Of a DNA stretch of 64,000 nt, positions 30,323 to 59,395 are shown piece by piece. The DNA lies in contig JANPLD010000027.1 of assembly GCA_031426355.1 (NCBI GenBank), forward strand, positions 18,907 to 82,906, in the 5' to 3' direction. Within the stretch, counting starts at the first letter, position 1. Every line of letters starts with the position of its first letter. Position numbers and translations under genes: made by a program. Source of the stretch: Alphaproteobacteria bacterium. Its GTDB lineage: Bacteria; Pseudomonadota; Alphaproteobacteria; Rickettsiales; UBA8987. The notes beneath the pieces are model-generated. The model worked only from the letters and a program-made list of their open reading frames with translations, searched no databases and was not told the origin of the DNA.

Positions 30323-31117
30323 CTACCTGTTAGCTAACACTTCTTCCTGAAAATTTACCAGAGCTGTATTTTGTCTTTCAGCCATAGCCATAAATTCTTT
30401 TCCTGAATCTATATTTTTTAATTTAATTATCTCGCCAACCCTGCCATCACTCATGGCTTGGGCGGTTACTTTAAGTTCCATATTTTTTTCACGATAGATG
30501 GCGATAACAGCTTTACCTTTTTTAATTACGATAGGGTTTTCAACATCTCCTGAAAGTATTTGGGAGCTTCTTGCGATATTCCTTTTTGCCTGTTTACCAA
30601 TTATGTATTTCTCGTTGTCAAGTGCTGAAGAAACAACTTTATTGTCAGGGGTGTGTTTAAAAGCGATATCACTTTCTTCTATCAATGCGCCTTTTCTGAT
30701 AAGAGTTTTTGCAACCGGTATCCTTCTGCTTTCAGTATATTTTCCTGTTGCGATTAGCCTATAAGTTGCCTTTTCAGGTGTAAGTATTGCTTCAAAAAAT
30801 TTTGTTTTATCATCAATAGTAACCTGGCTTACCTCAAGCATATCTTTAATGCCTGATTTTTCAGCTTCATCCAATGAATAAGATTTTTCAGAGCCTTCCC
30901 TTATAAGGTAACCGTATTTTACAGAGAATATATTTCCCTTTGAATTCGTTGAAATGGCTTCAGAAAGTTTTTGCGAAATATCTTTAATTGAAAAACTTTC
31001 AGAAGAATTAAGCTTTTCGTTTGTTTTTTTGTGTACTACTTCAGAGGCTAAAATATTGCCAAAAACTGCAAATACAAATAGTAGACATAAAAATAATTTT
31101 GATAATAGCTTCTTCAT
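30323..31117 (-). CDS. flgA: flagellar basal-body P-ring formation chaperone
   Basis: 264 aa. Signal peptide and a C-terminal SAF/ChapFlgA region (GD.IKLKN..SGK). Its position between flgG and flgH is typical of alphaproteobacteria. Confidence 0.8.
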   Translation of the reverse strand: MKKLLSKLFLCLLFVFAVFGNILASEVVHKKTNEKLNSSESFSIKDISQKLSEAISTNSKGNIFSVKYGYLIREGSEKSYSLDEAEKSGIKDMLEVSQVTIDDKTKFFEAILTPEKATYRLIATGKYTESRRIPVAKTLIRKGALIEESDIAFKHTPDNKVVSSALDNEKYIIGKQAKRNIARSSQILSGDVENPIVIKKGKAVIAIYREKNMELKVTAQAMSDGRVGEIIKLKNIDSGKEFMAMAERQNTALVNFQEEVLANR

Positions 31118-31215
31118 TTAGCGCCCCCTTGGTTTCATCATAAATTTTAACCGGATAATCTTTATCAGCCCTTCCGCATTTAGTAAGTTTCATTTAATCC
31201 CCCAGATTAATTTTA

Positions 31216-32007
31216 TTACCTTACGTTATTTAGCGCTCCAAGCATTTCATCTGATGTCTGAATCACTTTAGAATTAAGTTCATAAGCCCTTTGCGCGGCG
31301 ATAAGTGTAGTAATTTCATAAACCGCATCTACGTTCGAGTTCTCAACAAACCCTTGCTGCACAGTACCAAAGCCAACTGCGCCTGGTGTTCCCGTTATCG
31401 GTGTACCAGAAGCTTCAGATTCCTTAAATGCATTATTACCGATCGGCCTTAAGCCACCTTCATTTATAAAATTCACTAATGTAAATTGCCCAAGCCTTTG
31501 TGGGGTTGCAGAATCATCTGTGGTGACAAAAACTTCACCTTGTACGTTCACTGTGATTTCAGAAGAGTTGTCAGGGATGGTGATAGTAGGATCAACAGTA
31601 AAGCCTTGAGGGTCAACTATCACACCTTGATTGTTAGGTGAGAATCTTCCTGCTCTGGTATAATATTCTGTGCCGTCTGCATCAGTTACCCTGAAATATC
31701 CTTTTCCTTGTATAGCAATATCAAAATCATTGCCTGTCTGTACAACGGTACCTTGCTCAACATTTCTATATATACCTACTGGTTTAACACCAAGACCAAC
31801 CTGCATACCGGTTGGTGGAAGGTTACCGCCTGATGTGCTTTGTACGCCTACGTCGCGGCCAAGGTTCTGGTATAAAAGATCTTGGAATTCACCTATCCTG
31901 CGTTTATAACCGGTGGAGTTCAGGTTGGCTACGTTGTTTGAGATTACCTCAACATTCAACTGCTGAGCGCTCATTCCCGTTGCTGCTATTTGTATTGCTC
32001 TAAGCAT
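31216..32007 (-). CDS. flgG: flagellar basal-body rod protein FlgG
   Basis: 263 aa. N-terminal rod motif ISNNVANLNSTGYKR and C-terminal ENSNVD...MI.AQRAYE. Confidence 0.9.
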   Translation of the reverse strand: MLRAIQIAATGMSAQQLNVEVISNNVANLNSTGYKRRIGEFQDLLYQNLGRDVGVQSTSGGNLPPTGMQVGLGVKPVGIYRNVEQGTVVQTGNDFDIAIQGKGYFRVTDADGTEYYTRAGRFSPNNQGVIVDPQGFTVDPTITIPDNSSEITVNVQGEVFVTTDDSATPQRLGQFTLVNFINEGGLRPIGNNAFKESEASGTPITGTPGAVGFGTVQQGFVENSNVDAVYEITTLIAAQRAYELNSKVIQTSDEMLGALNNVR

Positions 32008-32029
32008 AAATTTTCATACTTTATTTAAG

Positions 32030-32761
32030 TTATTGGGTTCCGGCTATTCTGCTCACAGCATTACGAACCAAAGAATGCTGATCATTAATAATTTTAGCTA
32101 TCTGTTGAACATCACGGCTGACATCGATCAGTTCGGTAAGTTGGTATACAGAATTCACGTTGGAGTTTTCCACCGTGCCCTGTGATATTTTAAAAGTTGT
32201 AGGGTCAGCGGTTTCCGGGCCTTGAGGGCTGGCAAAATAAGTGTTTCCAACTTTTCTCAATTGTGACTGGTCAGCAAAATTAACTATTCCAATGGTACCT
32301 CTTGAAACTCTCAGGTCATTATTAAGGGCTGTTATTTCACCATTACCAGCTATTAATATTTCTGTGTCGTTAGGGTCCATATTAATGGCGCCGCCATCAC
32401 CCTGAACGGCGTAACCTTCAGGTGTTACTATTTGCCCTTCAGCATTCAATGTGAAAGAGCCTGCGCGTGTGAACCTTGGTCCAAGCGGGGTATCAACCTC
32501 AAAAAAACCGTTACCATCTATGGCTACATCAAGTGGCCTGCCAGTAGCGTTGAGTGGCCCTGCCTGCATATCTGAGGCGGTTGTCATCATTGGGGTAGGG
32601 ACAACTTTGCCATTAACTACTGAGTTATCTTTAAGGTAAACTGAAAGGTCAGATTTAAAGCCGTTGGTATTTGCGTTAGCGACATTGTTCGCCAGAACGT
32701 CAAGACGGTCAAAAAGACTTTTCTGTTTTACGTATGCAATTACTTCTGTTTCCATAACCAA
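32030..32761 (-). CDS. flgF: flagellar basal-body rod protein FlgF
   Basis: 243 aa. N-terminal LANNVANANTNGFK and C-terminal GTVENSNVN motifs. The start could be the second Met at 32755. Confidence 0.85.
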   Translation of the reverse strand: MVMETEVIAYVKQKSLFDRLDVLANNVANANTNGFKSDLSVYLKDNSVVNGKVVPTPMMTTASDMQAGPLNATGRPLDVAIDGNGFFEVDTPLGPRFTRAGSFTLNAEGQIVTPEGYAVQGDGGAINMDPNDTEILIAGNGEITALNNDLRVSRGTIGIVNFADQSQLRKVGNTYFASPQGPETADPTTFKISQGTVENSNVNSVYQLTELIDVSRDVQQIAKIINDQHSLVRNAVSRIAGTQ

Positions 32762-34507: not shown

Positions 34508-35530
34508 ATGAAAAATGAATTTTTAAAACAAGTAGGTTGGCAGCAGCAACTGCAGAATTCTGAAGAGCCTGTAGAAACCAGAGCGGAACTTCAACTAAGG
34601 CTAATGCAGGTTGAACAGTTATTGGAAAAAAGGAAAGGACTTTATATTGGTGGTTATGTTAAAGGTGAGATTAATGTTATTGATCCAGATAAGTTTCAGA
34701 AAGCAGCAGAAAAGTGGCAAAAAGATTATGAAATAAAGAATGGTCCGGTTGATAAGAAGATATCTGATTTGATAAAAGATAATAATGGGATACTTGATAT
34801 TTTTCTTGAGGAATTAAAAACAGAAACAGCAGCTGCAGTAAAAAATTTTAAAGAACCTGTTAAAGATAAAAATCCAGAGCAAAATAATAAGGTTAAAACG
34901 CAAACGCCGTCTGTTGTTGCTCAAGCACATAAGAGCGAAGTATCTAAACAAGAAATGGTGGTTGAAAGTCCTAAAAAAGCTCTAGAAAATTCTGAAGAAA
35001 CCAGAGAAACTTTGCAGAAAAGGCTTGGCCAGATCAATTCCATACTTGGAAATAAAGAAAAATATACAGGGATGAACGGAGCGGTTCTTGATCTTGAAAA
35101 GTTTCAACAAAAAGCGTTTTTATGGCTTAATAATAATGAAAAAAATGCAGATGATTGGGTGAAAAATAAAATTACTAACTCATCTCGAGAAAGTTTATAT
35201 GTAAATTTTCTTAGCAAAAAAGAAGAGTTGGAAATAGCCCTTAAAGAACCGGAAAAAGCTCCTGTTATAGAGCAAAAAAATCAACCCGCAGCAAATAGCT
35301 TAGTTAGGCCAGAGCCAGATGCTATTACCCATCTTATTTTTGATGCTTTAGTTAATGATGCAAAAACTCCTGAGATAGTTGATAATGATGAGTTTAAAAA
35401 AATAGTGGAAGAAGGAAAAAAATTAAAAGCGGCAATAACAAAGAATGAAGGAAATGGAACAATAGATGTTACTCCGCAAGAGGGTTCTAAACTTAAGAAA
35501 AGAACTTATGAACAAATAAAATTTCATTAA
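34508..35530 (+). CDS. hypothetical Lys/Glu-rich protein with an internal ~85-aa duplication
   Basis: 340 aa with no signal peptide. NSEEPVETRAELQLRL...DPDKFQKAAEKWQKDYE is repeated as NSEETRETLQKRL...DLEKFQQKAFLWLNNNE. Confidence 0.55.
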   Translation: MKNEFLKQVGWQQQLQNSEEPVETRAELQLRLMQVEQLLEKRKGLYIGGYVKGEINVIDPDKFQKAAEKWQKDYEIKNGPVDKKISDLIKDNNGILDIFLEELKTETAAAVKNFKEPVKDKNPEQNNKVKTQTPSVVAQAHKSEVSKQEMVVESPKKALENSEETRETLQKRLGQINSILGNKEKYTGMNGAVLDLEKFQQKAFLWLNNNEKNADDWVKNKITNSSRESLYVNFLSKKEELEIALKEPEKAPVIEQKNQPAANSLVRPEPDAITHLIFDALVNDAKTPEIVDNDEFKKIVEEGKKLKAAITKNEGNGTIDVTPQEGSKLKKRTYEQIKFH

Positions 35531-35667: not shown

Positions 35668-37020
35668 TTATGTTCCTGCTATCGTCATTCCCTCAATCAT
35701 CAGGGTTGGGGCATTTTTGGAATAACGCATGTTAAGATCGTTAGCTGCAGTAAGATTCATAAACATTTCGAGGAGGTTCCCTGCAATGGTTATTTCTGAA
35801 ACGGGATAGGTCAGAACGCCATTCTCGATCCAGAAACCGCTGGCACCTTGGCTGTAATCTCCGGTGATACCATTTACACCCATACCGAAAGCATCAGTCA
35901 CATATAGACCCTGTGTAATATTTTTTATCAGGTCATTAAATGAAATATTCCCGCCTTCCATATACATGTTGGTTGAGGAAGGAGAGGGCTGAGTATTAAT
36001 TCCACGAGATGCTCTGCCGTTAGATTTTAGCCCAAGTTTTTGTGCAGAGCGCAGATCTAATATCCATGTTTTTAAAACTCCATTCTCAATTATGGTAAGT
36101 TTTTCACCTTTGATGCCTTCGGCATCAAATGGCTGGGAACCTAAGCCTTTTGGAAGAAGCGGGTTATCATATATATTGATGTTTTTTGGGAGTATCTGTT
36201 TTTCCATTTTGTCAAACAAGAAACTGGATTCTTTAACTATACTTGCGCCGTTGATAGCTCCAGCAAGGTTCCCGACAAAATCCCTTGAGACCCTTCTATC
36301 AAAAACAATGGGAACTTTCATGGTGTTTATTTTACGCGGATTTAATTTTCTGACTGTCCATTCAGCCGCGCCTTTACCAATATCAGAAGGGTTGCGTAAG
36401 TCGTCACGATGATGGGCGTAAGAATAATCATAATCAGTTTCCATTTCGGTGCCTTCACCTGCGATGGCGGAAACGGAAATATTGTAACCGGATGTTCTAT
36501 ATGACTGTGAAAAACCTTTTGAGGTAAGCATCACTGTTTCTGAGTGTGAATAGCTTGATTCCGCATATTCAGTATTGGTTATACCTTTGGATTCCAGGCA
36601 TGCAGTTTCCGCTTCATTTGCCCAGTTCTTAAGTTCATCAATGGTTGCGCCTTTATTACAATATATCTTCAGGCTTTCAACATCACTATTTTTTGTGAAT
36701 TCATTTTCTTCAGCCAAGCGATATGATCTGTCGGCTGGTGAAAATTTTGCCTGTTCTATAACTTTCTCAACTGTGGCTTTGATATTGTTTTCGAGTAGAT
36801 TATTGGTTGATACGAGAGCGATCTTCTGGCCGTCTTTATCATCCAGAAAAACCCTTATTCCAAGGTCACGCGTTTCAGATGATTCGATCGTTTCAGGTTT
36901 ACCCTTATGCTGACGGTAAGAGATATTAGTTGATTGCACTATCACAACATCTGCGGCACTTGCCCCGCTTTTAAGGGCGTGTTCAATTGTTAGATTCGCT
37001 GCGTTGAGGTTAGTGTTCAT
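35668..37020 (-). CDS. pmbA: TldD/PmbA-family metalloprotease (PmbA-like)
   Basis: 450 aa. The C-terminal region GDYSQGASGFWIENG...ITIAGN is typical of the family. Confidence 0.85.
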   Translation of the reverse strand: MNTNLNAANLTIEHALKSGASAADVVIVQSTNISYRQHKGKPETIESSETRDLGIRVFLDDKDGQKIALVSTNNLLENNIKATVEKVIEQAKFSPADRSYRLAEENEFTKNSDVESLKIYCNKGATIDELKNWANEAETACLESKGITNTEYAESSYSHSETVMLTSKGFSQSYRTSGYNISVSAIAGEGTEMETDYDYSYAHHRDDLRNPSDIGKGAAEWTVRKLNPRKINTMKVPIVFDRRVSRDFVGNLAGAINGASIVKESSFLFDKMEKQILPKNINIYDNPLLPKGLGSQPFDAEGIKGEKLTIIENGVLKTWILDLRSAQKLGLKSNGRASRGINTQPSPSSTNMYMEGGNISFNDLIKNITQGLYVTDAFGMGVNGITGDYSQGASGFWIENGVLTYPVSEITIAGNLLEMFMNLTAANDLNMRYSKNAPTLMIEGMTIAGT

Positions 37021-37400
37021 TTGTTTTTTGAATTATTTTCCATTCCTAAGCCTTTCGCAATATAAGTTAAGGCAAGCGTGTTTATACTTACGCCTTCAAA
37101 TTTTGCGCGGACGGAAAGCTCTTTATGGATTGTTTTAGGAAGTCTCTGAACAAATTTTCCGCTAAAATCATCACCTGGTAAAGTGCTTCCCGGTTTTGGT
37201 ATCTGCCTTTTTAAGTTTTTTGCTGTTTCTATCCATGCCTTAACAGCATCTCTTCCTTCTTCAAGCGTTGCTTTTATTGTATCTCCGTCAGATATGCAGC
37301 CGGGCAGATCGGGGAATTCTATCAAGTATCCCCCCCCGTCTCCTTTTGATAAAGGTTTAATAATGAACGGATATTCAAAATTTGTATCGCTTATTTTCAT
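37017..37400 (-). CDS. hicB: type II antitoxin HicB family (HicB fold + C-terminal RHH-like DNA-binding segment)
   Basis: 127 aa. GGGYLIEFPDLPGCISDGDT...A..EGRDA...WIE. A 4-nt overlap with hicA upstream and a 4-nt overlap with pmbA downstream. Confidence 0.8.
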   Translation of the reverse strand: MKISDTNFEYPFIIKPLSKGDGGGYLIEFPDLPGCISDGDTIKATLEEGRDAVKAWIETAKNLKRQIPKPGSTLPGDDFSGKFVQRLPKTIHKELSVRAKFEGVSINTLALTYIAKGLGMENNSKNK

Positions 37401-44554: not shown

Positions 44555-45985
44555 TTGGTTTTTGAAAATTACAATTCTGCTGGGTTCTATGATGAGCTTT
44601 TTGATGAGAATCAAAAGGCGAGGGCGGCTGCCATGCCGCTGGTGTGGGATCTTTCCTACGCAACCATGAATGATATCAGAAAAAAGCAGCTAGCTGCTGA
44701 AACCCTGCTGATGCAGACAGGTGTAACCTTTACCGTATATGGTGATAAGCGCTCAACTGAGAAGATAATGCCGTTTGATATCATCCCGCGTATTGTCTCT
44801 TCTTCAGACTGGGATTTTATTGAGAAAGGACTTAAACAACGTATTCAGGCGCTAAACCTATTTCTCGCTGATTGTTATGGTGAGAAGAAAATTTTTGAGG
44901 CTGGATTGATCCCGCCTGATCTTATCTATAAAAGTGAATTCTATATACCGCAGTTACAAGGATTTCGCCCCCCAAAAGATATCTGGGTTCATATCAGCGG
45001 TATTGATCTGGTTCGCGGTGGTGATGGTGAATATTATATATTAGAGGATAATCTCCGCTGCCCTTCAGGTGTTTCTTATGTCCTTGAGAACCGTGAAATA
45101 TTAAAGCGTACTTTTCCGCAGGTGTTCAGTTCTATCAATGTGCGTCCGGTAAGTAATTATCCGAGTGAATTATTTAATGCCTTAAAATACCTTGTGGAAG
45201 AAGTGGAAAACCCGACAATAGTTGTGTTAACGCCAGGTGTTTATAATTCTGCGTATTTTGAGCATTCATATCTTGCCCAGCAGATGGGCGTTGAATTAGT
45301 TGAAGGTTCTGACTTAATAGTGCGTGATGATGTGGTATACATGAAAACCACTAAAGGCCTACAAAAAGTTGATGTTATTTATCGCCGAATCGACGATGAA
45401 TATCTTGATCCGAAATTCTTCCGTCCTGAATCAATGCTTGGTGTTCCGGGTATCATGAGTGCTTACCTTGCCGGTAATGTTGCACTTGTTAATGCCCCGG
45501 GTGTTGGTATTGCAGATGATAAAGTTGTATATTCGTACGTTCCTGAAATAATAAAATTCTATCTTGATGAAGAGCCTATACTTAAAAATGTGCCAACTTA
45601 TCTATGCTGGCGTGAAGAGGACAGGAAATATGTGATAGAAAATATTGAGAAACTTGTTGTAAAAGCTGCAACGCTATCTGGAGGTTATGGACTCCTTATT
45701 GGTCCTCATTCTACTAAAGAGCAACAGCAGGATTTTATAAATAAAATAAATGAAGACCCGAGGAATTATATTGCCCAGCATGTTATTAACCTTTCAACTG
45801 TGCCAACTATCACTGATGAAGGTTTGCAGCCGCGACATGTGGATCTTCGCCCGTATATAATTTATGGTAAGGAAACATATATTTCTCCGGGTGGCCTCAC
45901 AAGGGTGGCGCTTCGTAAAGGTTCGCTAGTTGTTAATTCTTCACAGGGTGGCGGTAGTAAAGACACCTGGGTGGTCGCAGATTAA
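44555..45985 (+). CDS. circularly permuted type-2 ATP-grasp protein (COG2308-type)
   Basis: 476 aa with a TTG start (no upstream ATG in frame). The family-typical N-terminal region reads YDELFDE...GVTFTVYGD...PFDIIPRI...W..IEKGLKQRIQALNLFL.D.Y, and downstream are NAPGVGIADDK and GGGSKDTWV. Confidence 0.8.
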   Translation: MVFENYNSAGFYDELFDENQKARAAAMPLVWDLSYATMNDIRKKQLAAETLLMQTGVTFTVYGDKRSTEKIMPFDIIPRIVSSSDWDFIEKGLKQRIQALNLFLADCYGEKKIFEAGLIPPDLIYKSEFYIPQLQGFRPPKDIWVHISGIDLVRGGDGEYYILEDNLRCPSGVSYVLENREILKRTFPQVFSSINVRPVSNYPSELFNALKYLVEEVENPTIVVLTPGVYNSAYFEHSYLAQQMGVELVEGSDLIVRDDVVYMKTTKGLQKVDVIYRRIDDEYLDPKFFRPESMLGVPGIMSAYLAGNVALVNAPGVGIADDKVVYSYVPEIIKFYLDEEPILKNVPTYLCWREEDRKYVIENIEKLVVKAATLSGGYGLLIGPHSTKEQQQDFINKINEDPRNYIAQHVINLSTVPTITDEGLQPRHVDLRPYIIYGKETYISPGGLTRVALRKGSLVVNSSQGGGSKDTWVVAD

Positions 45986-45997
45986 AAAATAAAAATT

Positions 45998-46924
45998 ATG
46001 TTAAGCAGAGTTGCAGAAAATTTATACTGGTTATCACGTTATATGGAGCGCGCAGAGAATATTGCTCGCCTTATAGATGTGAATTACCACCTTATGCTTG
46101 ATATGCCGCATTCTGATGCGGAGCAGTGGGAACCCATTATAATTTCACTCAATGAAGAAGATGAATATAAGAAAAGATATTCCGGATTTGCGCGTGAAAA
46201 TGTTATCCAGTTCCTTACTTTTGATGAGCAGAACCCGAATTCAATAATATCTTCGGTAAATTCAGCGCGTTTTAATGCCCGTACTGTTCGTGAGTCAATT
46301 TCTCCTGAAATGTGGGAAGAGATAAATAATCTTTATCACTATATTAAGCACTTCAAGGAAGATCAAAATGAGGTTGATGATTATAAAGAATTATACAGGC
46401 ATATAGTTAAAGCTAGCCACTTATTCCTTGGAACAACTGATAGAACCATGATCCATGAAGAAGCATGGAGATTTATTAGATTAGGCCGATTACTTGAACG
46501 TGCTGATAAAACTACCCGCATATTAGATGTAAAATATTTCATACTTCTGCCTTCTGTATATGATGTAAATACTTCCCTTGATGATATCCAATGGGGTGCA
46601 CTCCTTAAATCTGCCAGCGTATTTGAAGCCTATCGCAGAAAGCATAACCGCATAGATTATGATTCAGTTCTGGATTTCCTTATACTTGAGAAAAGACTAC
46701 CGCGTAGTGTTAGATATTGCATTGATGGGGCTTTTAGTACAGCAGCAAAAATATCTCCTAATTTAAAAGGTGAAACATATAATAACCTTTTTAACCTTAC
46801 CAAAGAACTTGCGAACAAATCTGTCGCAGAGATAAAATTCTATGGTCTGCATGAGTATCTTGATCTCCTCCAGCAGAAGATCAACGCCATAGGTGATGGT
46901 GTTTATCAGGATTATTTTTTATAG
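45998..46924 (+). CDS. alpha-E domain-containing protein (COG2307-type)
   Basis: 308 aa. Family-typical N-terminus MLSRVAENLYWLSRYMERAENIARLIDV. It lies 12 nt downstream of the ATP-grasp gene. Confidence 0.8.
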   Translation: MLSRVAENLYWLSRYMERAENIARLIDVNYHLMLDMPHSDAEQWEPIIISLNEEDEYKKRYSGFARENVIQFLTFDEQNPNSIISSVNSARFNARTVRESISPEMWEEINNLYHYIKHFKEDQNEVDDYKELYRHIVKASHLFLGTTDRTMIHEEAWRFIRLGRLLERADKTTRILDVKYFILLPSVYDVNTSLDDIQWGALLKSASVFEAYRRKHNRIDYDSVLDFLILEKRLPRSVRYCIDGAFSTAAKISPNLKGETYNNLFNLTKELANKSVAEIKFYGLHEYLDLLQQKINAIGDGVYQDYFL

Positions 46925-47037
46925 GGTAAAAATTTTTGTTTTTTTAATTATAACAAAAAATAATTAAGAAAGGTTAGTGAGACCAAGATTTTTAGTAGAG
47001 GTTTTACAATCTGAGATTAAATTCTAATTAGATCAAA

Positions 47038-47124
47038 GTGTCATTCCCGCGAAGGCGGGAATCTAGAGAAGTTGTAGTTCTAAATATTATTTAGGCTAGA
47101 TACCTGCCTTCGCAGGTATGACAC
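47038..47124. repeat. 87-bp palindromic (MITE/RPE-like) repeat, GTGTCAT...ATGACAC family
   Basis: gtgtcattcccgcgaaggcgggaatctag ... ctagatacctgccttcgcaggtatgacac. The arms are inverted copies of each other (24/29), and each arm contains its own small GC hairpin. The element lies between convergent genes. Confidence 0.7.
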
Positions 47125-47162
47125 ATTATATTTGTAATTGTATATCTTTCTAAAGTTTTTGG

Positions 47163-50100
47163 TTAAACCCTTCTTAAATCTAAAGTCAGCGGAAAATCAG
47201 GTGATGGTTGGTAAGCTACTGTCTTAACTTTTCTTTTGCTATGTCCAATAGTTTCAAAGCGGCTGATCATGCGACCTTCTGCCTCATTTACGTTTACTGG
47301 CATTTTTTCATAATTTCTGCCACCGGGGTGAACTACATGATATTTACAACCGCCGATAGATATGCCCGTGCTTCTATCAATAACATCAAAAACTAGGGGG
47401 CTATTTACGGGTAGGTTAGGGTGCATAGCATATGGAAGATCCCAGGCCTTGAATCGTAATCCAAATGAAGGTGAATTATCATAGATAGGAGAGCAGTCTA
47501 CGCCATTAACTGTCAGCATGTATTTTTTGCTATCAAGGCCATTAACTTTTATCTGCATCCTTTCAATTGCCGAATCAACGCCGCGGGCAGTTGCGCCGGC
47601 AATAGTTTCTTCACCAAGAACAAGCCAAGGCTCCAAAGCCATGCGGAGTTCAATATTTACGTCTCCAATTTTGGCTTCGCCATACTTTGGAAACCTGAAG
47701 TCATGCTGTGCTAAAAACCATTCTTTTTCAAAAGAATAACCATTAGAATTCAAGTAATTTATTATGCTGGAAAAGTCTTCCCATACAAAATGCGGGAGCA
47801 TGAATTTGTCATGGAGATGAGTACCCCATCGTATTAATTTTCCATCATATGGTTTTTTCCAGAAGCTTGTAACTAATGCCCTGAGCAGAAGGATTTGTAG
47901 TAGATTCATTCTGGAGTGAGGTGTCATTTCGAATCCGCGGAATTCTACTAATCCTAATCTCCCTCTTTCAAGTTCAGGAGTATAAAGCTTATCAATACAT
48001 ATTTCTGTGCGGTGAGTATTGCCCGATGAATCTATAAGTATATTCCTGAGCAGTCTATCTATCAGCCAGAATGGCATTTTTTTATTTTTATCGATCTGTG
48101 AAAGTGCGATCTCAAGTTCATATAGGCTATCATTTCTAGCTTCATCTATCCTTGGTGCCTGTGAGGTTGGGCCCATGAAAATGGATGAGAAAAGATATGA
48201 AAGGCTAGGATGGTTCTGCCAGAATAGTATAATGCTTTTTATCAGGTCTGGTCTTCTAAGAAAAGGCGAGTCAGAAGGTGTTTCACCGCCCATAACTATA
48301 TGGTTACCGCCGCCAGTGCCGATCTTCCTACCATCTACCATGAATTTCTCGGCGGTGAGCTTGCAATATTTTGCTTCCTCATAAATGGTTTCATTTATGA
48401 ATTTTAGGTCATCCCAATTTTTTGCCGGTTGAACATTCACCTCTATTACGCCCGGGTCAGGTGTGATATGAAAATTCTTAGTGCGTGGGTCTCGTGGTGG
48501 TTCATAACCCTCAATTATCACGGGGAGATTCAGGTTCTCCGCAATAGTTTCTATTGCGGCAACTAATTCCAGATAATGTTCAATGTAAAAAAGTGGTGGC
48601 ATGAAAATGTGGATTTTACCTTCCCGAACTTCAACGCAAAGTGAAGTTCTAACATATCCCATCTTATCTTTTGCTAGATATGATAGTTCACTTTCACTTG
48701 TTTTTTTTGAGCTACGCTCTTTTATTTTTTTCTGAATAATTTCGTGGCTGGGAAGATTCTCAAAATCATCAAAATTACTTCTCTCAGGAGGTGTTTCAAT
48801 TGCAGCTTCCTTTACAAAGGGAACTGAATTCAGAGGCAATCTATATCCAATTGGCGAATCACCCGGGATAAGCAGAAGATGTTTGCTCCTGAATTTCCAT
48901 AGGTTGGTTATCCATTTCTTACGTTTGATGGAATAGAGAAGGGGAACAACATAACCTTTTGGTGTGCCAAGGGTTTCTTTATCAAGCTTGAGAAGCCTTT
49001 TAACTTCATCGTCATCTTCAGCCTTTTTGATAAGTTGGCCTGTCAGCGGTAATATTCTTTCCTGAAGCAAATAATAGGGCACGTCTTCATATGCGGGTAA
49101 AATTGCATTTGATGGAAGGCCAAGTCCTTTGCAGATACCATCAATTATTTTTTTAGCGTCAGTTAGTTTATATGAATAATCTTTTGCAGGGTTAGCTATA
49201 AGCGCTTCATTTTTCCAGACAGGCTGATCATCTTTACGCCATTGGCAAAGATAAGCCCAGCGCGGTAAAGATTCCCCGCCATACCATTTTCCCTGACCAA
49301 ATTGAAGAACTGCACCTTTTGAGAATTTATTCTTTAATCTGAATAGTAAATCAATAGCTTTACGTTTTTTTTCATCGCCAAGCGCGGCTGTATTCCATTC
49401 CGGCGCATCACGGTTCTCGTTTGAGACAAAAGTTGGTTCGCCACCTAAAGTTAAGCGTATATCATTCTTTTTGATTTCTTCATCAACCTGTTTTGCGAGT
49501 TCCTCAATATCATTCCACTGTGAATCGCTTAATGGTTTTGTAACGCGTGTCGGTTCGTGTACACGCAGAACTTCCATTTGATAATCAATTGTGCTTTCGC
49601 ACATATCAAGCAGCCCTTCTACTGGCGCAGCGTTAGAAAAATGCGCGGCAGCAGCAAGTGGAATATGTCCTTCACCTGTGAGTAAGCCGGAGGTTGGGTC
49701 AAGCCCTATCCAGCCAGATCCGGGGATATAAATTTCCGTCCATGCGTGAAGGTCGACCACATCTTGCGCAACGCCAACCAAGTCACTATCAACTGGTTTT
49801 TCATCTGGTTTTAACTGGATCAGATATCCTGAAACAAACCTTGCTGCCACACCAAGATGGCGGAAAATATTGCAGAGCAGCCACGCCATATCCCTGCATG
49901 ATCCTGTTCCTAAGGTTAAAGTTTCTTCACATGTGAAAGTATTCTGTTCCAGCCTGATAGTATATTTTAAGCTCTCTGAAATCTTGCGGTTAAGAGCAAC
50001 AATGAAATCTATCGTATTTGTCGATCTTAAATTTTTGTCATTTTTTAATTTCTTAATAAAATTTAATAAGTTTTGGCCGCTTTCAGCAGGGCTTAAATAT

Positions 50101-50447
50101 TGAGCGAGTTCCGTTTTTAAATTCTCTTCATATTGAAAAGGAAAATTTTCATATTTTTTATCAAGGAAGAAATCAAAAGGGTTGATAATCCTGATCTCGG
50201 CTTTTATATCAACTTCAATTTTAAATTCATTCACGCGTTCAGGGAAAACTACATTGGCTATCCAGTTACCATATATGTCCTGGTACCAGTTCAGGAAATG
50301 TTCTTTTGGAAAGATATTCAGTGAATATGACTTAATAGGAATTTTACAATGTGGGGAAGGGCGCAGACGTATCGTCTGAGGCGCCAGATTTATCGGCCTG
50401 TCATATTTATAGTGAGTTACATGTGTTACAGATGTTAGAATGGACAT
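47163..50447 (-). CDS. large transglutaminase-family protein (Bact_transglu_N + transglutaminase core + DUF2126-like C-terminal ~750 aa; COG4196-type)
   Basis: 1094 aa. N-terminal THVTHYKYDRPI...IRLRP, and a Cys-His-Asp triad context (GSCRDMAWLL, DLHAWTEIYIPGSGW, GLDPTSG). The long C-terminal region is typical of ~1100-aa members. Confidence 0.85.
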   Translation of the reverse strand: MSILTSVTHVTHYKYDRPINLAPQTIRLRPSPHCKIPIKSYSLNIFPKEHFLNWYQDIYGNWIANVVFPERVNEFKIEVDIKAEIRIINPFDFFLDKKYENFPFQYEENLKTELAQYLSPAESGQNLLNFIKKLKNDKNLRSTNTIDFIVALNRKISESLKYTIRLEQNTFTCEETLTLGTGSCRDMAWLLCNIFRHLGVAARFVSGYLIQLKPDEKPVDSDLVGVAQDVVDLHAWTEIYIPGSGWIGLDPTSGLLTGEGHIPLAAAAHFSNAAPVEGLLDMCESTIDYQMEVLRVHEPTRVTKPLSDSQWNDIEELAKQVDEEIKKNDIRLTLGGEPTFVSNENRDAPEWNTAALGDEKKRKAIDLLFRLKNKFSKGAVLQFGQGKWYGGESLPRWAYLCQWRKDDQPVWKNEALIANPAKDYSYKLTDAKKIIDGICKGLGLPSNAILPAYEDVPYYLLQERILPLTGQLIKKAEDDDEVKRLLKLDKETLGTPKGYVVPLLYSIKRKKWITNLWKFRSKHLLLIPGDSPIGYRLPLNSVPFVKEAAIETPPERSNFDDFENLPSHEIIQKKIKERSSKKTSESELSYLAKDKMGYVRTSLCVEVREGKIHIFMPPLFYIEHYLELVAAIETIAENLNLPVIIEGYEPPRDPRTKNFHITPDPGVIEVNVQPAKNWDDLKFINETIYEEAKYCKLTAEKFMVDGRKIGTGGGNHIVMGGETPSDSPFLRRPDLIKSIILFWQNHPSLSYLFSSIFMGPTSQAPRIDEARNDSLYELEIALSQIDKNKKMPFWLIDRLLRNILIDSSGNTHRTEICIDKLYTPELERGRLGLVEFRGFEMTPHSRMNLLQILLLRALVTSFWKKPYDGKLIRWGTHLHDKFMLPHFVWEDFSSIINYLNSNGYSFEKEWFLAQHDFRFPKYGEAKIGDVNIELRMALEPWLVLGEETIAGATARGVDSAIERMQIKVNGLDSKKYMLTVNGVDCSPIYDNSPSFGLRFKAWDLPYAMHPNLPVNSPLVFDVIDRSTGISIGGCKYHVVHPGGRNYEKMPVNVNEAEGRMISRFETIGHSKRKVKTVAYQPSPDFPLTLDLRRV

Positions 50448-50711
50448 AATATACTGTTTTGTAATGGGAAAATAATTTTCGGCTATTAATCTTTTATTAA
50501 GCTTTTCTATCTATAATAACTTTATCTTATTCTAAAGAAAAGCAATAGGAGATTGGGTATAAGGAATCCATATTAATTTAATGAAGTTCAAACAGTGGCT
50601 TTGTAATCAAATCTTAAATGAGAAAAACTATAAGAAGGGTAAGTACAATGACAATATAATTGCGGCGACTGGGTTTGATGTGTAATTTATTATTAAATAT
50701 AAATATATAAG

Positions 50712-52655
50712 ATGAAGAATTTTCTATTTGCGGTTTCTCTGGATTGTCCCGCTTCTCCGGCGCTTGGTTTTAAGTGCAAGATAGGGTTTGATGAGAATAA
50801 GAAGAGGCTTAACGGTACGGGGTTTGCGTGGTATCTGGGTGATGATTTTGCTGCGCAGATAGTTAAAGACTGTAACTCTTTTGAAGAGGCGGGCATGCCA
50901 AAAGTTCTTCAGGAATGGCGCAGGTTCCGCTCATCAATTTTCATGATGAATTTTTATGGCGCTTCGTATGATGCAACCCTCCAGAATACTCAGCCGTATG
51001 CAAAGCCCTTGGCAAACCGTGAATGGTCTTGGATGCAGCAGGGGGATTTTGATATGCACGCCTTGCGTGAACTTGCGGGTGATAAAAGGAAAATGATATA
51101 TCAACCGGTTGGCACTACAGATTCTGAGCTGACATTCAGCATAATCCTGAATCGCTGCATTAAAAAAGGATACATGAATTTGAGGGAAGTAGGCTGGAGC
51201 AATCTATATTCATGGTTTGATGAGCTTTCTAAGCTTGGAAGCGCAAATATTGTGGTTTCAGATGGGCAATATCTGGTTGCCTACAGAACTGTAAAAACAG
51301 ACGAGAAACTTTTTTATGCGCGACGTAAACCGCATTTTAAAACTAATGTTCTGAAGTCAGATACTGCGGAGGTTTCTGTGGATTTCAGCAATGGCATAGA
51401 TAAACTGCGTACTCAGGTAGTATTTGCTTCTGAAAAATTATCTGATGAACCTTTGTGGAATGAAGTTATGAAAGGGCAGATGATAGTTTCCGCAAGCGGC
51501 ACTATTGTGTGGGATAGTGCAAAAGACCTTAAAACCTCTTCTATGAAAATTAAAAAACCTGAAAATTTCCTTAACCAGCAGGAGCTCCAACTGGCGGCTT
51601 CTTTAACGACAACAAATAACTCTATGTCTGAACAGAAAGATGGTAATGCTAAACCTATTACAGAGCAATACGATCACCATCCCGAGAACGCCCCTGAGAT
51701 AGAGGACATACTTGAGAATAACTGCGTACCCGTATCGCGTGAGCTTGATTATTATATTTCAAATACCTTACTTAACAAAGGTACGAGGGTTATGAGAGTG
51801 ACGCATGAAACTATTTATACTTATGATAAGCCGATCGAGCGAAGCGAGCATGTATACCGACTTATCCCAATGTATAACCGTTTCCAGCAGTTGCTGGAAT
51901 ATTCGCTTGATGTTGACGTTCCGGCTGAGCGCATGGTTTATCGCGATGTTTATAATAATGATGTTATCCATCTGACCATTGATACGCCATATAGGGAGCT
52001 TAGTATTATAAGCCATAGTACGGTGAGAATACACCGTATTGACCCTGATGATTTCTCGCATCAGCTTCGTAAAACAAAAATACCTTACGCGTGGATGCCA
52101 GGACAAAGACAGACGATGCAGGCGTTTTTAATTCCACCTGAACTTCCTGAAACGCAGATAAGGGAACTTACTGATTACGCAATGAGCTTTGTGCGAAGGA
52201 ATGATTATAATCTTTATGATACGCTGCAGGATATGAACCGCACTATCTATAATGATTTTGAGTATAAGCAGAAGGTCACTGATTTTAATACCAGCGCTTT
52301 TGAGGCTTATGTTCTGAGGCAAGGTGTCTGTCAGGATTTCGCAAATCTGATGATATGTCTGGCGAGGTTGCTTGGTATTCCGGCGCGCTACCGTATGGGT
52401 TACATCTATACTGGCGCTGATTATGGTAATAAGATACAGTCAGAGGCTACTCACGCTTGGGCAGAGCTTTATATACCTTACGTGGGCTGGAGAGGGTTTG
52501 ACCCAACTAACGGTAAGATGGTAGATCAGGATTACATACGCGTTGCGTGCGGCCGTAACTATCTTGATGCGACGCCAACTTCAGGCACTATTTATAAAGG
52601 TGGTGGGAAGGAAACGCTGAGAGTTAATGTAAGGACCGAAGTAGTGGAAGAGTAA
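50712..52655 (+). CDS. fusion protein: degenerate class-II glutamine-amidotransferase-like domain + Bact_transglu_N/transglutaminase-like cysteine peptidase domain
   Basis: 647 aa. The N-terminal ~270 aa resemble YafJ-type GATase-II (NGTGFAWY...) but lack Cys2. From Met361 (nt 51792) onward it reads like a standalone COG1305 protein (MRVTHETIYTY...), with the triad GVCQDFANL, THAWAELYIPYVGW, GFDPTNG. Confidence 0.8.
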   Translation: MKNFLFAVSLDCPASPALGFKCKIGFDENKKRLNGTGFAWYLGDDFAAQIVKDCNSFEEAGMPKVLQEWRRFRSSIFMMNFYGASYDATLQNTQPYAKPLANREWSWMQQGDFDMHALRELAGDKRKMIYQPVGTTDSELTFSIILNRCIKKGYMNLREVGWSNLYSWFDELSKLGSANIVVSDGQYLVAYRTVKTDEKLFYARRKPHFKTNVLKSDTAEVSVDFSNGIDKLRTQVVFASEKLSDEPLWNEVMKGQMIVSASGTIVWDSAKDLKTSSMKIKKPENFLNQQELQLAASLTTTNNSMSEQKDGNAKPITEQYDHHPENAPEIEDILENNCVPVSRELDYYISNTLLNKGTRVMRVTHETIYTYDKPIERSEHVYRLIPMYNRFQQLLEYSLDVDVPAERMVYRDVYNNDVIHLTIDTPYRELSIISHSTVRIHRIDPDDFSHQLRKTKIPYAWMPGQRQTMQAFLIPPELPETQIRELTDYAMSFVRRNDYNLYDTLQDMNRTIYNDFEYKQKVTDFNTSAFEAYVLRQGVCQDFANLMICLARLLGIPARYRMGYIYTGADYGNKIQSEATHAWAELYIPYVGWRGFDPTNGKMVDQDYIRVACGRNYLDATPTSGTIYKGGGKETLRVNVRTEVVEE

Positions 52656-56649: not shown

Positions 56650-58830
56650 ATGCTCTCACGGTTTAAAATAATAAATACCATCTTCTCTCCGAGAACTCTG
56701 GCAGTATTGCTTGCGTGCGTGTTCATCGCTGCATCTGCGGCAATGTATAGCCTGTTCTCAAAAAGCTTCACCAACCTTGAGTATAATTTCAAGCTTACCC
56801 CCTTACTGCTTTCAGTGAATGCGGGTATACTTATAATATTGCTGATACTTATCTATAAAAAAATCTCACGCATAAGAAGTGATGCACGTGAAAGTGGAAT
56901 GGGTTCTCGGATGCAGAAGCGTATAGTTCTCATATTTACGCTTCTAACAATTATCCCGACACTTATAACTTCCGGTTTTGCGATATCATTTTTCCTTTAT
57001 GGATTACGCGGGTGGTTTGATGATAAAATAAGCATTGCGCTTAATAATTCAGTAAAAGTAGCTGAGGCATATCTTGGAGAGCATGCGGAAAACCTTAAGG
57101 CTGATTCATATGCCATGTCACGCGACATAACACGTTTTGCTAATGAGCTAATGGAGAACCAGGCTGATTTTAAAACTTACCTTACGGCGCAATCAGGTTG
57201 GAGAGGCCTTACTGATGCTATTGTTTTCCGTAAGAAAGATATTTTAGCCGCTTCTGATGGCACAGTTACATATATGGTAGATTTTGATGCCATTGATGAC
57301 AAAGCTCTGGAACGTGCCGATCATGGTGAGATAGTTCTGACAATGGAGGATGATAACAAGGTTAAGGTTCTCATAAAACTGAAAGGTTTTAATGATACCT
57401 ATTTACTTGTGAGTAAGATCGTTGATGAGAAGGTTCTCAATTATACCAAGCAAACAAGGGATTCAGTTACGGAATATAACCGACTGCGTGATAATGTTGA
57501 TAATCTGCAAGTGCAGTTCATAATTGCGTTCAGCGGAGTTTCAGCGATACTTTTATTCTCATCTATATGGCTAGGATTGATTTTTGCATCACGCGTTATT
57601 GCGCCGCTATATAAACTAAACCGTGCCACTGAACGTGTGCAGTCAGGTGATTTAACAGTTCGCCTTGATGAGAGCATAAAAGATGATGAGATAACAAATC
57701 TCTTCCGCGCGTTTAACCGCATGACAGGAAACCTCCAGAGGAACCAGTTGCAACTGGTTGAAGTAAATCGCCAGATAGACCAGAGAAGTAGAATAATAGA
57801 GGCGGTTTTCTCAGGTGTTAATTCCGGCATAATTGCGCTTGATGAACATAAAAGGGTTCGCATATTCAATGCTTCGTCAGCTGTGGTACTCAAGGTTGAT
57901 GAGCATAATATAGTAGGCAGATATATTGCCGATGTATTCCCAGAAATAACTACTTTCTTTGTTCGCCTGCGTGAGCTGAAAGGGGAAATATTCCAGCAGC
58001 AGATAGATATTAAACGTGATGGCATAATTTCTAATTTGCTCGTCCGTATTGTGACGGAAGAGGCTTCAAAGCAAGTTGAAGGGTATATAATTACCATAGA
58101 TGATATTACCAAACTTGTTAACGCGCAGAGGATGTCTGCATGGAGTGATGTTGCAAGGCGTATTGCGCATGAGATCAAAAACCCGCTTACGCCGATCAAT
58201 CTTTCAGCTGAGCGTATCCGCGTAAAATTTGAAGCTGTGATACCTGAAACTGACAGAGAAAATTTCAATCGTTATATTGATACAATAATAAGGCACGCAG
58301 ATAATATTGAGCGTATCGTTCGTGAATTCTCTGATTTTGCGCGTATGCCGCAGCCGATGTTGGTGCGTAATAATATATGCGAGGCTATTCGTGAGTCAGT
58401 GTTCTCAGAGAAAGTTGTGAATGGAAATATTGATTATGAGATCAATATTCCTGAAGAGGATATTTTTTTTGATTTTGATAAGGAGCAGATATCAAGAGTA
58501 CTTCAGAATACACTTAAAAACGCAGCTGAATCCATGCGCGAAAGTGGTTTAAACGAAGGGCAGGAAAAGGGGCATATTTCCATCTCACTAAAAAGAAATA
58601 AGCATCTTGAGCTTGAGATACTTGATAATGGAAAAGGTTTTGCGCCTGAGCTGCTTAACCGCTTAACGGAGCCTTATGTTACTACTCGCGAGAAGGGAAC
58701 AGGGCTTGGGTTAGCTATAGTTAAAAAGATCATTGATGACCATTCTGCAAGCCTTGAGCTTTCTAATAATGCTTCACCTGAAGGTAAAGTGCTGGGAGCG
58801 CGTGTTCATATTACATTCTTTATGGGTTAG
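56650..58830 (+). CDS. ntrY: NtrY-like sensor histidine kinase (TM + HAMP + PAS + HisKA + HATPase_c)
   Basis: 726 aa. N-terminal multi-TM region, H-box AHEIKNPLTPI, N-box and G-boxes (LDNGKGF, GTGLGLAIV). Confidence 0.85.
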   Translation: MLSRFKIINTIFSPRTLAVLLACVFIAASAAMYSLFSKSFTNLEYNFKLTPLLLSVNAGILIILLILIYKKISRIRSDARESGMGSRMQKRIVLIFTLLTIIPTLITSGFAISFFLYGLRGWFDDKISIALNNSVKVAEAYLGEHAENLKADSYAMSRDITRFANELMENQADFKTYLTAQSGWRGLTDAIVFRKKDILAASDGTVTYMVDFDAIDDKALERADHGEIVLTMEDDNKVKVLIKLKGFNDTYLLVSKIVDEKVLNYTKQTRDSVTEYNRLRDNVDNLQVQFIIAFSGVSAILLFSSIWLGLIFASRVIAPLYKLNRATERVQSGDLTVRLDESIKDDEITNLFRAFNRMTGNLQRNQLQLVEVNRQIDQRSRIIEAVFSGVNSGIIALDEHKRVRIFNASSAVVLKVDEHNIVGRYIADVFPEITTFFVRLRELKGEIFQQQIDIKRDGIISNLLVRIVTEEASKQVEGYIITIDDITKLVNAQRMSAWSDVARRIAHEIKNPLTPINLSAERIRVKFEAVIPETDRENFNRYIDTIIRHADNIERIVREFSDFARMPQPMLVRNNICEAIRESVFSEKVVNGNIDYEINIPEEDIFFDFDKEQISRVLQNTLKNAAESMRESGLNEGQEKGHISISLKRNKHLELEILDNGKGFAPELLNRLTEPYVTTREKGTGLGLAIVKKIIDDHSASLELSNNASPEGKVLGARVHITFFMG

Positions 58831-58878
58831 GTTTTTGTACGCACGTTTGTATGGACAAATATCATTTTATGATATATT

Positions 58879-59175
58879 ATGAAAATAAAGGTTACATCAT
58901 TTAATTGGGATTCCGGTAATATAGAAAAGTGCCAAAAGCATGGCCTTTCTGTAGGGCTTATAGAGTCCTTTTTTAAGCAAAAAGATATTTTTATTGCTCC
59001 TGACGTAAAACATTCAGTTAAAGAGCAAAGATTTATTGCTATAGGAAAAACAAATAATGGTAGGCCGATCTTTGTGGCTTTTGCTTATAGGAAAAATTCT
59101 GTTAGACCCATTAGCGCAAGATATATGCATAATAAGGAGATAAGAAAATATGAAGAAGAGTTTTCCAAAAATTAG
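58879..59175 (+). CDS. brnT: type II toxin BrnT family (DUF497 ribonuclease)
   Basis: 98 aa. FNWDSGNIEKCQKHGLS...EQRFIAIG...RPISARYMHNKE pattern. Confidence 0.8.
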   Translation: MKIKVTSFNWDSGNIEKCQKHGLSVGLIESFFKQKDIFIAPDVKHSVKEQRFIAIGKTNNGRPIFVAFAYRKNSVRPISARYMHNKEIRKYEEEFSKN

Positions 59176-59395
59176 ATCAGATAAGCATGCTGAAGAACTT
59201 TTGGAATCAGATATGTCTGAGTTCTTAAGTAAAAAAAACTTTAAAAAAGTATCGTTTGAGTTTTTGCCAAAGGATAAAAAAGTTAATTTAAGATTTTCTG
59301 ATTCCCTTTTGGTTGCAATAAAAAAGGAAGCTAAAAAGCTTTCTATTCCATATCAGAAATTTATTCGTCAGATACTGGAAAGAGAGGTTTTGTAA
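59150..59395 (+). CDS. brnA: BrnA/CopG-type antitoxin
   Basis: 81 aa. Overlaps the brnT 3' end. The C-terminal RHH-like segment reads VNLRFSDSLLVAIKKEAKKLSIPYQKFIRQILE. Confidence 0.7.
   Translation: MKKSFPKIRSDKHAEELLESDMSEFLSKKNFKKVSFEFLPKDKKVNLRFSDSLLVAIKKEAKKLSIPYQKFIRQILEREVL

Follow-up and report, generated by a model that had tools for sequence, protein, structure and literature searches.

Which reaction, if any, unites four adjacent genes that encode an ATP-grasp protein, an alpha-E protein and two transglutaminase-containing proteins? The genes lie at 44555-52655 of a 64,000-nt stretch of Rickettsiales-like DNA (positions 18,907 to 82,906 of contig JANPLD010000027.1, assembly GCA_031426355.1), which was analysed as a whole and is called the window below. 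The locus holds an intact and selectively retained copy of a widespread bacterial module that combines a circularly permuted (CP) ATP-grasp enzyme, an alpha-E protein, transglutaminases and DUF2126, and by its sequences it is a member of the COG2308/COG2307/COG1305/COG4196 amidoligase neighbourhood. As to function, we favour, with a probability of about one half, a coupled ligase/thiol-amidase system by which amide bonds of the peptide or gamma-glutamyl type would be made and removed. The genes and their parts are as follows (aa, amino acids; GAT, glutamine amidotransferase; TG or TGase, transglutaminase; GS, glutamine synthetase).

44555..45985, + strand: ATP-grasp gene, 476 aa with a TTG start; CP_ATPgrasp_2, circularly permuted type-2
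45998..46924, + strand: alpha-E gene, 308 aa; Alpha-E domain
47163..50447, - strand: TG-DUF2126 gene, 1094 aa; Bact_transglu_N, Transglut_core and DUF2126
49608..50447, - strand: N-terminal transglutaminase-like module of TG-DUF2126 (residues 1-280), placed by Pfam, conserved triad and fold
47163..49607, - strand: DUF2126 region (residues 281-1094), putative GS/GCS2-like carboxylate-amine ligase
50448..50711, no strand: divergent spacer between TG-DUF2126 and GAT-TGase, 264 nt, with presumed promoters
50712..52655, + strand: GAT-TGase fusion gene, 647 aa; GATase_4, Bact_transglu_N and Transglut_core
50712..51536, + strand: degenerate class-II (Ntn) glutamine-amidotransferase-like domain, residues 1-275 of the fusion
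51537..51779, + strand: variable, predicted disordered linker of the fusion, residues 276-356
51780..52655, + strand: small transglutaminase-like module of the fusion, counterpart of the stand-alone COG1305 protein in canonical clusters

An earlier note, made from the letters of the DNA alone, had named these four open reading frames (ORFs) and their Pfam families, with intact Cys/His/Asp triads in both transglutaminases and a 12-nt gap between the first two genes. The coordinates proved exact, profile searches returned every family with E-values from 1e-17 to 0, and the alpha-E start indeed follows the ATP-grasp stop by 12 nt. The ATP-grasp protein covers the whole CP_ATPgrasp_2 profile (E=1.6e-164), and its closest solved relative is PDB 3N6X, a 'putative glutathionylspermidine synthase' (E=2e-164). 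Since the product aligns with 3N6X end to end, the TTG start, which is preceded by AAGGGAAG, is credible. Identity of the ATP-grasp protein to proteobacterial and Bacteroidota plasmid homologues is 53-57%, reaching 57% with a RefSeq-annotated homologue on an Enterobacter plasmid. The alpha-E protein likewise covers its whole profile (E=3.4e-96) and carries two ER motifs (YMERAEN and LLERADK); no solved structural relative was found for it by PDB sequence and profile searches.

For TG-DUF2126, Pfam matches were obtained to Bact_transglu_N (2.6e-23), Transglut_core (7.6e-17) and DUF2126 (E=0, 1156 bits, residues 281-1092). Its triad motifs GSCRD/DLHAW/GLDPT are present, with C184, H234 and D250 invariant in an alignment of 36 homologues. 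A homologue search gave at least 8000 candidates, all with E <= 1e-10, and identity is about 50% to homologues from Azospirillum, Pseudomonas and Beggiatoa; judged by these sequences, the family is very large and slow to evolve. The fusion matched GATase_4 (4.8e-40), Bact_transglu_N (7e-18) and Transglut_core (4.1e-20), and its triad (GVCQD/THAW/GFDPT; C540, H581 and D597) is invariant among 23 aligned homologues. The small transglutaminase module of the fusion resembles PDB 3ISR by sequence (5e-13) and by fold (1.6e-14) and is 29% identical to the 293-aa small transglutaminase of the Enterobacter cluster. The linker before it was modelled with a predicted local distance difference test score (pLDDT) of about 30, and its alignment columns are poorly aligned and variable in length. 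No NCBIfam model matched any of the four proteins, except for a sub-threshold match to EgtC. PADLOC assigned none of the four to its families, and an anti-phage defence identity of the locus was rejected on that ground.

Linkage across genomes was followed from the rarest component, the GAT-TGase fusion, with one genome scanned per species. From 588 confirmed relatives 80 loci were kept, of which 48 were fully flanked, i.e. had at least 8 kb on both sides. The 80 loci came from, among others, Rickettsiales, Caulobacterales (many Asticcacaulis), Hyphomonas, Kiloniella, Sneathiella, Steroidobacteraceae and Legionellales, and further from Nitrospinota, Planctomycetota, Myxococcota, Bradymonadia, Melainabacteria/Vampirovibrionia, Chlamydiae and Spirochaetales. 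All four families were present in 31 of the 48 fully flanked loci, spread over about ten phyla and including Rickettsiales, Caulobacterales, Nitrospinota, Planctomycetota, Myxococcota, Melainabacteria, Chlamydiae and Legionellales. The divergently oriented TG-DUF2126 and GAT-TGase genes were kept as a pair in 39/48 and are the tightest linkage of this subtype. With D for TG-DUF2126, G for GAT-TGase, A for ATP-grasp and E for alpha-E, the gene orders in the 48 loci were:

<D G> A> E>: 21 loci
<D G> only: 8 loci
G alone: 7 loci
<D A> E> G>: 4 loci
A> E> <D G>, the order of the window: 3 loci (L003, L004 and one Nitrospinia locus)
<D G> <E <A: 3 loci
G> <E <A: 1 locus
G> D>: 1 locus

When ORFs of at least 70 aa from all 80 loci were compared all against all, only four families recurred (in 68, 54, 40 and 39 loci). 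No fifth conserved family emerged among these ORFs, the next-commonest one occurring in 10 of 80 loci and reflecting Asticcacaulis synteny. Median intergenic distances were 25 nt from A to E (39 loci), 37 nt from G to A and 136 nt between D and G. Natural fusions of the Rosetta-stone kind join the partners as well: ATP-grasp with alpha-E (an 803-aa protein of L205), transglutaminase with DUF2126, and GAT with transglutaminase. The cluster is dispersed in GCA_964445765.1, the closest relative genome, with the fusion gene on a separate contig and TG-DUF2126 6.5 kb from the ATP-grasp gene; the purH/ATP-grasp synteny of the window is kept there, and all four genes are intact. Their co-retention after dispersal is independent evidence for a joint function, and that Rickettsiales-like genomes keep all four genes despite the break-up argues that the function is not dispensable there. 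The linkage anticipated in the earlier note is thus real, both in these loci and on annotated plasmids of cultured bacteria. That note was to be abandoned if profile matches were missing, if the triads did not align or if the genes were unlinked elsewhere; matches, aligned triads and linkage were all found.

The DUF2126 part deserves more weight than its earlier description as a 'DUF2126-like C-terminal region', which is correct as to the family but underplays a putative GS-like ligase. Pfam describes DUF2126 as a 'putative amidoligase', and in the 36-homologue alignment dozens of residues are invariant, including the motifs GGEPTF, QGKWY, TPDPGVxE, GxGGGNH and GNTHRxE; E337, E669, H716, R731, H812, R813 and E815 are among the invariant positions. 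In the model of TG-DUF2126 (pLDDT 77, predicted template modelling score, pTM, 0.74) Foldseek matched the N-terminal transglutaminase to 3ISR (E=3e-12). The only matches outside the transglutaminase were glutamine synthetase and gamma-glutamylmethylamide synthetase (GmaS); these were weak (E 0.05-0.5, about 290 columns, template modelling score, TM, 0.26-0.30), yet consistent across many entries. In the classification of Iyer et al. 2008, the family of Rv2566 belongs to the GS/GCS2 superfamily of carboxylate-amine ligases (PMC2588565). DUF2126 is probably a second, glutamine-synthetase-like ligase of the system.

The N-terminal domain of the fusion has a familiar fold that has lost catalytic residues. 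Residues 1-275 were modelled with pLDDT 80-95, and Foldseek recovered the class-II (Ntn) amidotransferase fold, with 1TE5 (YafJ-type; TM 0.83, E=3.5e-17) and EgtC (TM 0.67) followed by GFAT, PurF and beta-lactam synthetase. Compared with YafJ and EgtC, which share its fold, the window domain has lost Cys1, the oxyanion Asn and the Arg: Asn3, after Met-Lys, stands in place of the N-terminal Cys nucleophile, QQG replaces the oxyanion motif HNG and Tyr replaces the glutamine-binding Arg, while the Asp of TDSE is kept. An exhaustive search with this domain alone yielded 307 representative proteins, and active-site columns were compared between stand-alone relatives of 230-300 aa (n=56), fusions of at least 560 aa (n=137) and the window's own clade (P0001-P0010):

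Nucleophile: Cys2 in 40/56 stand-alone relatives (start MCELLG...); in the 137 fusions Ser 81 (24 of them at position 2; P0249 and P0262 are examples of Ser2), Gly 16, Asn 12, Pro 8 and Cys 2; in the window clade Asn after Met-Lys
Oxyanion motif HNG: 47/56 stand-alone; 90/137 fusions; xQG in the window clade
Glutamine-binding Arg: Arg in 53/56 stand-alone; Arg or Lys in 94/137 fusions; Tyr, His or Asn in the window clade
Active-site Asp: 54/56 stand-alone; 118/137 fusions; 8/10 in the window clade

The Cys nucleophile is missing from 135 of 137 fusion proteins, and the window's clade is the most degenerate. From these residues the domain is predicted to be unable to hydrolyse glutamine in the window's clade. 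Nucleophile loss is a trait of nearly the whole fusion subfamily, with a predicted pseudo-enzyme at least in that clade; Ser-Ntn activity may occur in other fusion clades. The domain had been called inactive-looking, which fits the loss of all three features, and unusual, which it is not within its subfamily. Beta-lactam synthetase offers a parallel, as its GAT-like domain also lacks the Cys nucleophile, whereas the window domain is fused to a transglutaminase and not to a synthetase domain. No proteasome, HslV or Anbu structure was among the top 50 fold matches. The idea that the domain derives from or replaces the Anbu peptidase was rejected, all Ntn fold matches being class-II amidotransferases; that it might substitute for Anbu functionally is pure speculation.

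How, then, might these parts work together? Two ATP-dependent carboxylate-amine ligases, the ATP-grasp enzyme with its alpha-E partner and the GS-like DUF2126 domain, would form peptide or gamma-glutamyl amides on a shared substrate via acyl-phosphates. Two papain-fold Cys-His-Asp transglutaminase-like modules, one tethered to the DUF2126 ligase and the other to the amidotransferase-like domain, would hydrolyse or transfer the same bonds via a thioester. With ligases that would form and transglutaminases that would cleave or transfer the same bonds, the system would write and erase an amide-linked modification. All catalytic families handle amide bonds at carboxylates, in most cases gamma-glutamyl or peptide bonds, and the modules are tethered or adjacent, which makes a writer/eraser the simplest reading. 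A peptide or protein side chain would be a likelier substrate than a free metabolite. Gamma-glutamyl amides are cleaved by class-II amidotransferase-like hydrolases, EgtC among them; the apparently dead domain of the fusion would most likely bind rather than cleave, providing the attached transglutaminase with a binding or regulatory module. The four-gene module as a whole would, in free-living relatives, belong to the nitrogen-limitation response.

Work on homologues bears on several of these steps. A related proposal from the Aravind laboratory has an ATP-grasp enzyme ligating peptide tags and a transglutaminase-like peptidase reversing the ligation (PMC3495828), and phosphate release from ATP has been shown for the ATP-grasp protein of Y. 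bercovieri (PMC6376114). In nitrogen-limited Burkholderia the cluster depends strongly on NtrC and sigma-54 (PMC5491218), nitrate as compared with ammonium induces the P. putida homologues (PMC8050072), a sigma-54 promoter is predicted for a Bradyrhizobium homologue (PMC13207237), and in marine metagenomes the cluster domains co-vary in abundance with urea-metabolism genes (PMC3597751).

A number of points weigh against the writer/eraser reading. The ligase assignment of DUF2126 leans on weak modelled-fold matches (E 0.05-0.5, TM about 0.3), and PDB sequence and profile searches with DUF2126 reached no ligase and no solved relative. In 7 of the 48 fully flanked loci the fusion gene stands without the other three families within 10 kb. 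No small tag-like ORF fits the gaps of the cluster, whose medians leave no room for a Pup-like tag gene. Sigma-54 promoters (TGGCAC-N5-TTGC, at most two mismatches) were matched 48 times in the window against 47 expected, and the one sigma-54-like match that falls in the divergent spacer is without the invariant GG; a link to nitrogen may therefore not hold for this host. Doubt also comes from Rv2569c, presumably the small-transglutaminase homologue of the M. tuberculosis cluster. The only biochemistry reported for a small transglutaminase of this kind describes Rv2569c as a promiscuous, E-64-insensitive protease (PMC11081392), an inhibitor profile that is a poor fit to the conserved Cys-His-Asp triad. 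The proteins of the Yersinia operon were co-expressed and formed no stable complexes, and no Anbu activity was found (PMC6376114). Finally, the literature searched holds no substrate, product or in vivo modification for any cluster member, in agreement with the statement of the earlier note that no product had been established; Rv2411c and Rv2567 of M. tuberculosis, still uncharacterised in April 2026, were negative in the unrelated assay of a preprint on gamma-aminobutyric acid (GABA)-trehalose, where they served only as negative controls (10.64898/2026.04.15.718621). The 'alpha-E119' of a preprint on uS11 isoaspartate is a residue and irrelevant to the alpha-E domain.

The alternative that survives best, possible although we consider it unlikely, is small-molecule nitrogen scavenging. 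Here the ligases would gamma-glutamylate or acylate a free amine (a polyamine, a methylamine-type compound or an amino acid) and the thiol enzymes would release it, without any protein substrate, on the model of the Puu, GmaS/N-methylglutamate, ergothioneine (EgtA/EgtC) and glutathionylspermidine pathways. The best fold relatives share this chemistry, namely GmaS/GS for DUF2126, EgtC for the GAT-like domain and the 'putative glutathionylspermidine synthase' for the ATP-grasp protein. The induction of homologues under nitrogen limitation (PMC5491218, PMC8050072), the co-variation with urea-metabolism genes (PMC3597751) and the absence of a tag gene from the cluster fit it as well. However, transglutaminase-fold enzymes characteristically target peptides and proteins, other subtypes of the cluster have recruited a proteasome homologue (PMC5666114), no conserved transporter or catabolic enzyme adjoins the cluster, and the GAT-like hydrolase is apparently dead in the window's clade and lacks a conserved nucleophile family-wide.

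Rather improbable is a reading that gives the effector role to the transglutaminase-like modules, which as proteases or protein-glutamine deamidases would mobilise nitrogen or degrade proteins, and only a regulatory or accessory role to the ligases. Degradation of several proteins by Rv2569c in vitro (PMC11081392), the company of Anbu in other subtypes (PMC3235984) and the release of ammonia by a transglutaminase under nitrogen starvation, as discussed in the Anbu papers (PMC6376114), would agree with this; yet the ligases are the most conserved parts of the system (the ATP-grasp protein by its identity of 53-57%, DUF2126 by its invariant residues) and are physically fused to a transglutaminase module, and the inhibitor profile of Rv2569c is at odds with the conserved triad. 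A chance juxtaposition of decaying remnants without joint function in a reduced, repeat-invaded Rickettsiales-like genome, to which the dispersed genes of the closest relative, a toxin-antitoxin-like pair between ATP-grasp and alpha-E there, a GIY-YIG-like ORF inserted at the same place in L003 and a palindromic repeat inside the window's cluster might point, has next to no probability in view of four full-length ORFs with intact invariant residues, and is effectively refuted by linkage across about ten phyla and retention of all four genes when dispersed.

The ligase/thiol-amidase reading can be set against systems that are already known. The neighbourhood was first noted by Valas and Bourne (PMC3235984) and by Iyer et al. 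2009, and the attribution to Iyer, Aravind and colleagues made in the earlier note agrees with their amidoligase neighbourhood as it is quoted in later papers (PMC5666114, PMC6376114, PMC3495828, PMC2588565). Its members in B. cenocepacia (I35_5080-83), on the Enterobacter IncFII plasmid NZ_CP116251 and in M. tuberculosis (Rv2566-Rv2569c) contain the same four families, with ATP-grasp and alpha-E tightly coupled as in the window. The genes PP_2685-88 of P. putida are likewise of the canonical type. The window differs in its order A> E> <D G>, which is not co-directional, in the absence of a detectable sigma-54 promoter, and in the degenerate amidotransferase-like domain and disordered linker added to its small transglutaminase. 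On the Enterobacter plasmid, ATP-grasp, alpha-E, TG-DUF2126 (1114 aa), a fused ATP-grasp/alpha-E paralogue (803 aa) and the 293-aa small transglutaminase are all co-directional, and the ATP-grasp and alpha-E proteins of the window are 57% and 35% identical to the first pair. A Ralstonia megaplasmid carries TG-DUF2126, a fused ATP-grasp+alpha-E paralogue and a small transglutaminase, and an Acidithiobacillus megaplasmid a Proteasome-family (Anbu-like) peptidase beside TG-DUF2126, ATP-grasp and alpha-E; the neighbourhood is thus combinatorial in its makeup. On the A. caldus megaplasmid (L206 2241-7835) about 1.4 kb separates the transglutaminase module (3043-3861) from the DUF2126 part (5307-7835, annotated as 842 aa), which suggests that the TG-DUF2126 gene, immediately downstream of the Anbu-like peptidase, has been disrupted or split.

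The five-gene proteobacterial cluster has a fused ATP-grasp/alpha-E paralogue that the window lacks; tblastn found it neither there nor in 82 related loci. The Anbu operon (ATP-grasp, alpha-E, transglutaminase and Anbu; PMC5666114, PMC6376114) has its first three families in common with the window, which possesses a DUF2126 protein, lacks Anbu and has an Ntn-fold domain of the amidotransferase and not of the proteasome type. No Pfam Proteasome match occurred among the 44 window ORFs scanned, and tblastn with the A. caldus Anbu-like protein gave no match in the window and the 82 related loci. The absence of an Anbu-type peptidase from the window, recorded in the earlier note, is therefore confirmed; with none of the 82 relatives carrying one, it is not the unusual feature it was taken for.

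Two further systems invite comparison. In glutathionylspermidine synthetase/amidase (GspSA) the logic is the same: the bond made by a circularly permuted ATP-grasp amide synthetase is undone by a papain-like Cys-His thiol amidase coupled to it. In the window the thiol enzymes have a transglutaminase fold instead of CHAP and reside on separate polypeptides, and GspSA has no counterpart of alpha-E, DUF2126 or the GAT-like domain, so that this is analogy and not membership. Pupylation (PafA/Dop/Pup/proteasome) would share a GS/GCS2-superfamily ligase with the window if DUF2126 is one (PMC2588565), and sister subtypes of the window's cluster are associated with a proteasome homologue; the window itself has no Pup-like ORF, no proteasome and no PafA/Dop signature.

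Between the convergent alpha-E and TG-DUF2126 genes lies one further element:

47038..47124, no strand: palindromic element, 87-nt hairpin

Its hairpin is stable (dG -44.3 kcal/mol, z = -6.7 compared with shuffles), and it occurs once in the window. The earlier note had seen this 87-bp palindrome between the two halves of the locus and counted it as unusual; it is indeed there, but it belongs to a widespread interspersed family. At least 120 metagenome stretches contain the arm motif GTCATTCCNGCGAANGCNGGAATC, often as inverted pairs spaced 40-60 nt and as many as four times in one contig, and the arms are themselves small hairpins of the form GTCATTCC-N-GCGAA-N-GC-N-GGAATC. The family (L084-L163) comes from soil, sediment, freshwater and marine metagenomes. 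A diverged copy occupies the same junction in L003 (about 6540-6680), where the changes relative to the window are compensatory; no copy stands at the junction in L004, where the gap is 10 nt, or in L037. By sequence, the palindrome is a generic interspersed repeat of the kind of repetitive extragenic palindromes (REP) or miniature inverted-repeat transposable elements (MITE), lodged between convergent genes and probably outside the ligase/transglutaminase system. A role as organiser of the locus was rejected, as the repeat is generic, and L004 and L037 have the same gene order without it. It may serve in transcription termination; scans for sigma-70 promoters and intrinsic terminators in the window gave no more than shuffles, and the palindrome was not called a terminator.

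Other insertions were seen in related loci. The divergent TG-DUF2126/fusion spacer of L003 (9876-10000) is full of GGTTACAGGT / ACCTGTAACC palindromic repeats of a family unlike that of the window. Between ATP-grasp and alpha-E, L003 has a 101-aa ORF (5178-5483) with an N-terminus that is GIY-YIG-like by eye, and L082 has a toxin-antitoxin-like ORF pair (21293-21944) with a weak Gp49 match and a dnstrm_HI1420 match. Selfish insertions in Rickettsiales-like relatives thus break the ATP-grasp/alpha-E coupling, and the genes are not inactivated.

The guanine plus cytosine (GC) content of the window is about 39%, and that of the cluster is like its surroundings. The closest homologues are from uncultured Rickettsiales metagenome-assembled genomes, and the window contains flagellar genes, aminoacyl-tRNA synthetases, gyrB, purH, nadE, infB and rbfA. 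Gene content, homologues and even GC together indicate a Rickettsiales-like chromosome and not an island. A 23S rRNA (6448-9273) and a 5S rRNA (9389-9503) follow a PfkB-family kinase ORF that ends at 5951; no 16S rRNA was found next to this pair and no tRNA in the 64-kb window. The arrangement is a split rRNA operon, as is typical of Rickettsiales. An RTX calcium-binding repeat protein, a flgH/flgA/flgG/flgF set and a HicB-type antitoxin are encoded at 22979-23974, 29563-32761 and 37017-37400, respectively, the flagellar genes being notable for a Rickettsiales-like genome. Two ORFs, 13359-14288 (309 aa) and 34508-35530 (340 aa), had no Pfam match at E <= 1e-4. About 4 kb to the right of the cluster, with infB and rbfA in between, lies the gene of an NtrY-type sensor kinase (NtrY_N, HAMP, PAS, HisKA and HATPase; 56650-59395), followed by a BrnT toxin/CopG antitoxin pair and then an amino-acid permease, and not by an NtrX regulator. 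Since homologous clusters elsewhere are regulated by nitrogen, its proximity is suggestive, with the limit that no sigma-54 promoter was found.

Systems of this kind have been known from comparative genomics since 2008-2009, and the locus itself will not surprise a specialist. The instance described here represents a coherent and widely distributed subtype that is GATase-fused, has four genes, and lacks both Anbu and the second ATP-grasp paralogue. No description of this subtype was found in the literature searched (Iyer et al. 2009 may mention the fusion), and its proteins are deposited in public databases under generic names such as 'class II glutamine amidotransferase' and 'transglutaminase family protein'. 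The useful outputs are the definition of the subtype, figures for how often the GATase domain has lost its nucleophile, the tight pairing of D with G and a list of cultured carriers. Few bacterial clusters still without a known product are as widespread as the ATP-grasp/alpha-E/transglutaminase module, and the four-gene subtype, without Anbu and the second paralogue, is simpler to dissect; Asticcacaulis, Kiloniella laminariae, Hyphococcus aureus and Algimonas arctica are cultured carriers that make genetics and metabolomics feasible. As an outside chance, the nucleophile-less GAT-like domain could gate the attached transglutaminase by sensing glutamine or gamma-glutamyl groups, and the module could be a system for reversible protein modification of the glutamylation or isopeptide type under the control of nitrogen status. 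If true, such a sensor-gated system would be a bacterial counterpart of tubulin glutamylation or pupylation, and its retention in a reduced Rickettsiales-like genome would indicate a core role in proteostasis and not a niche metabolism.

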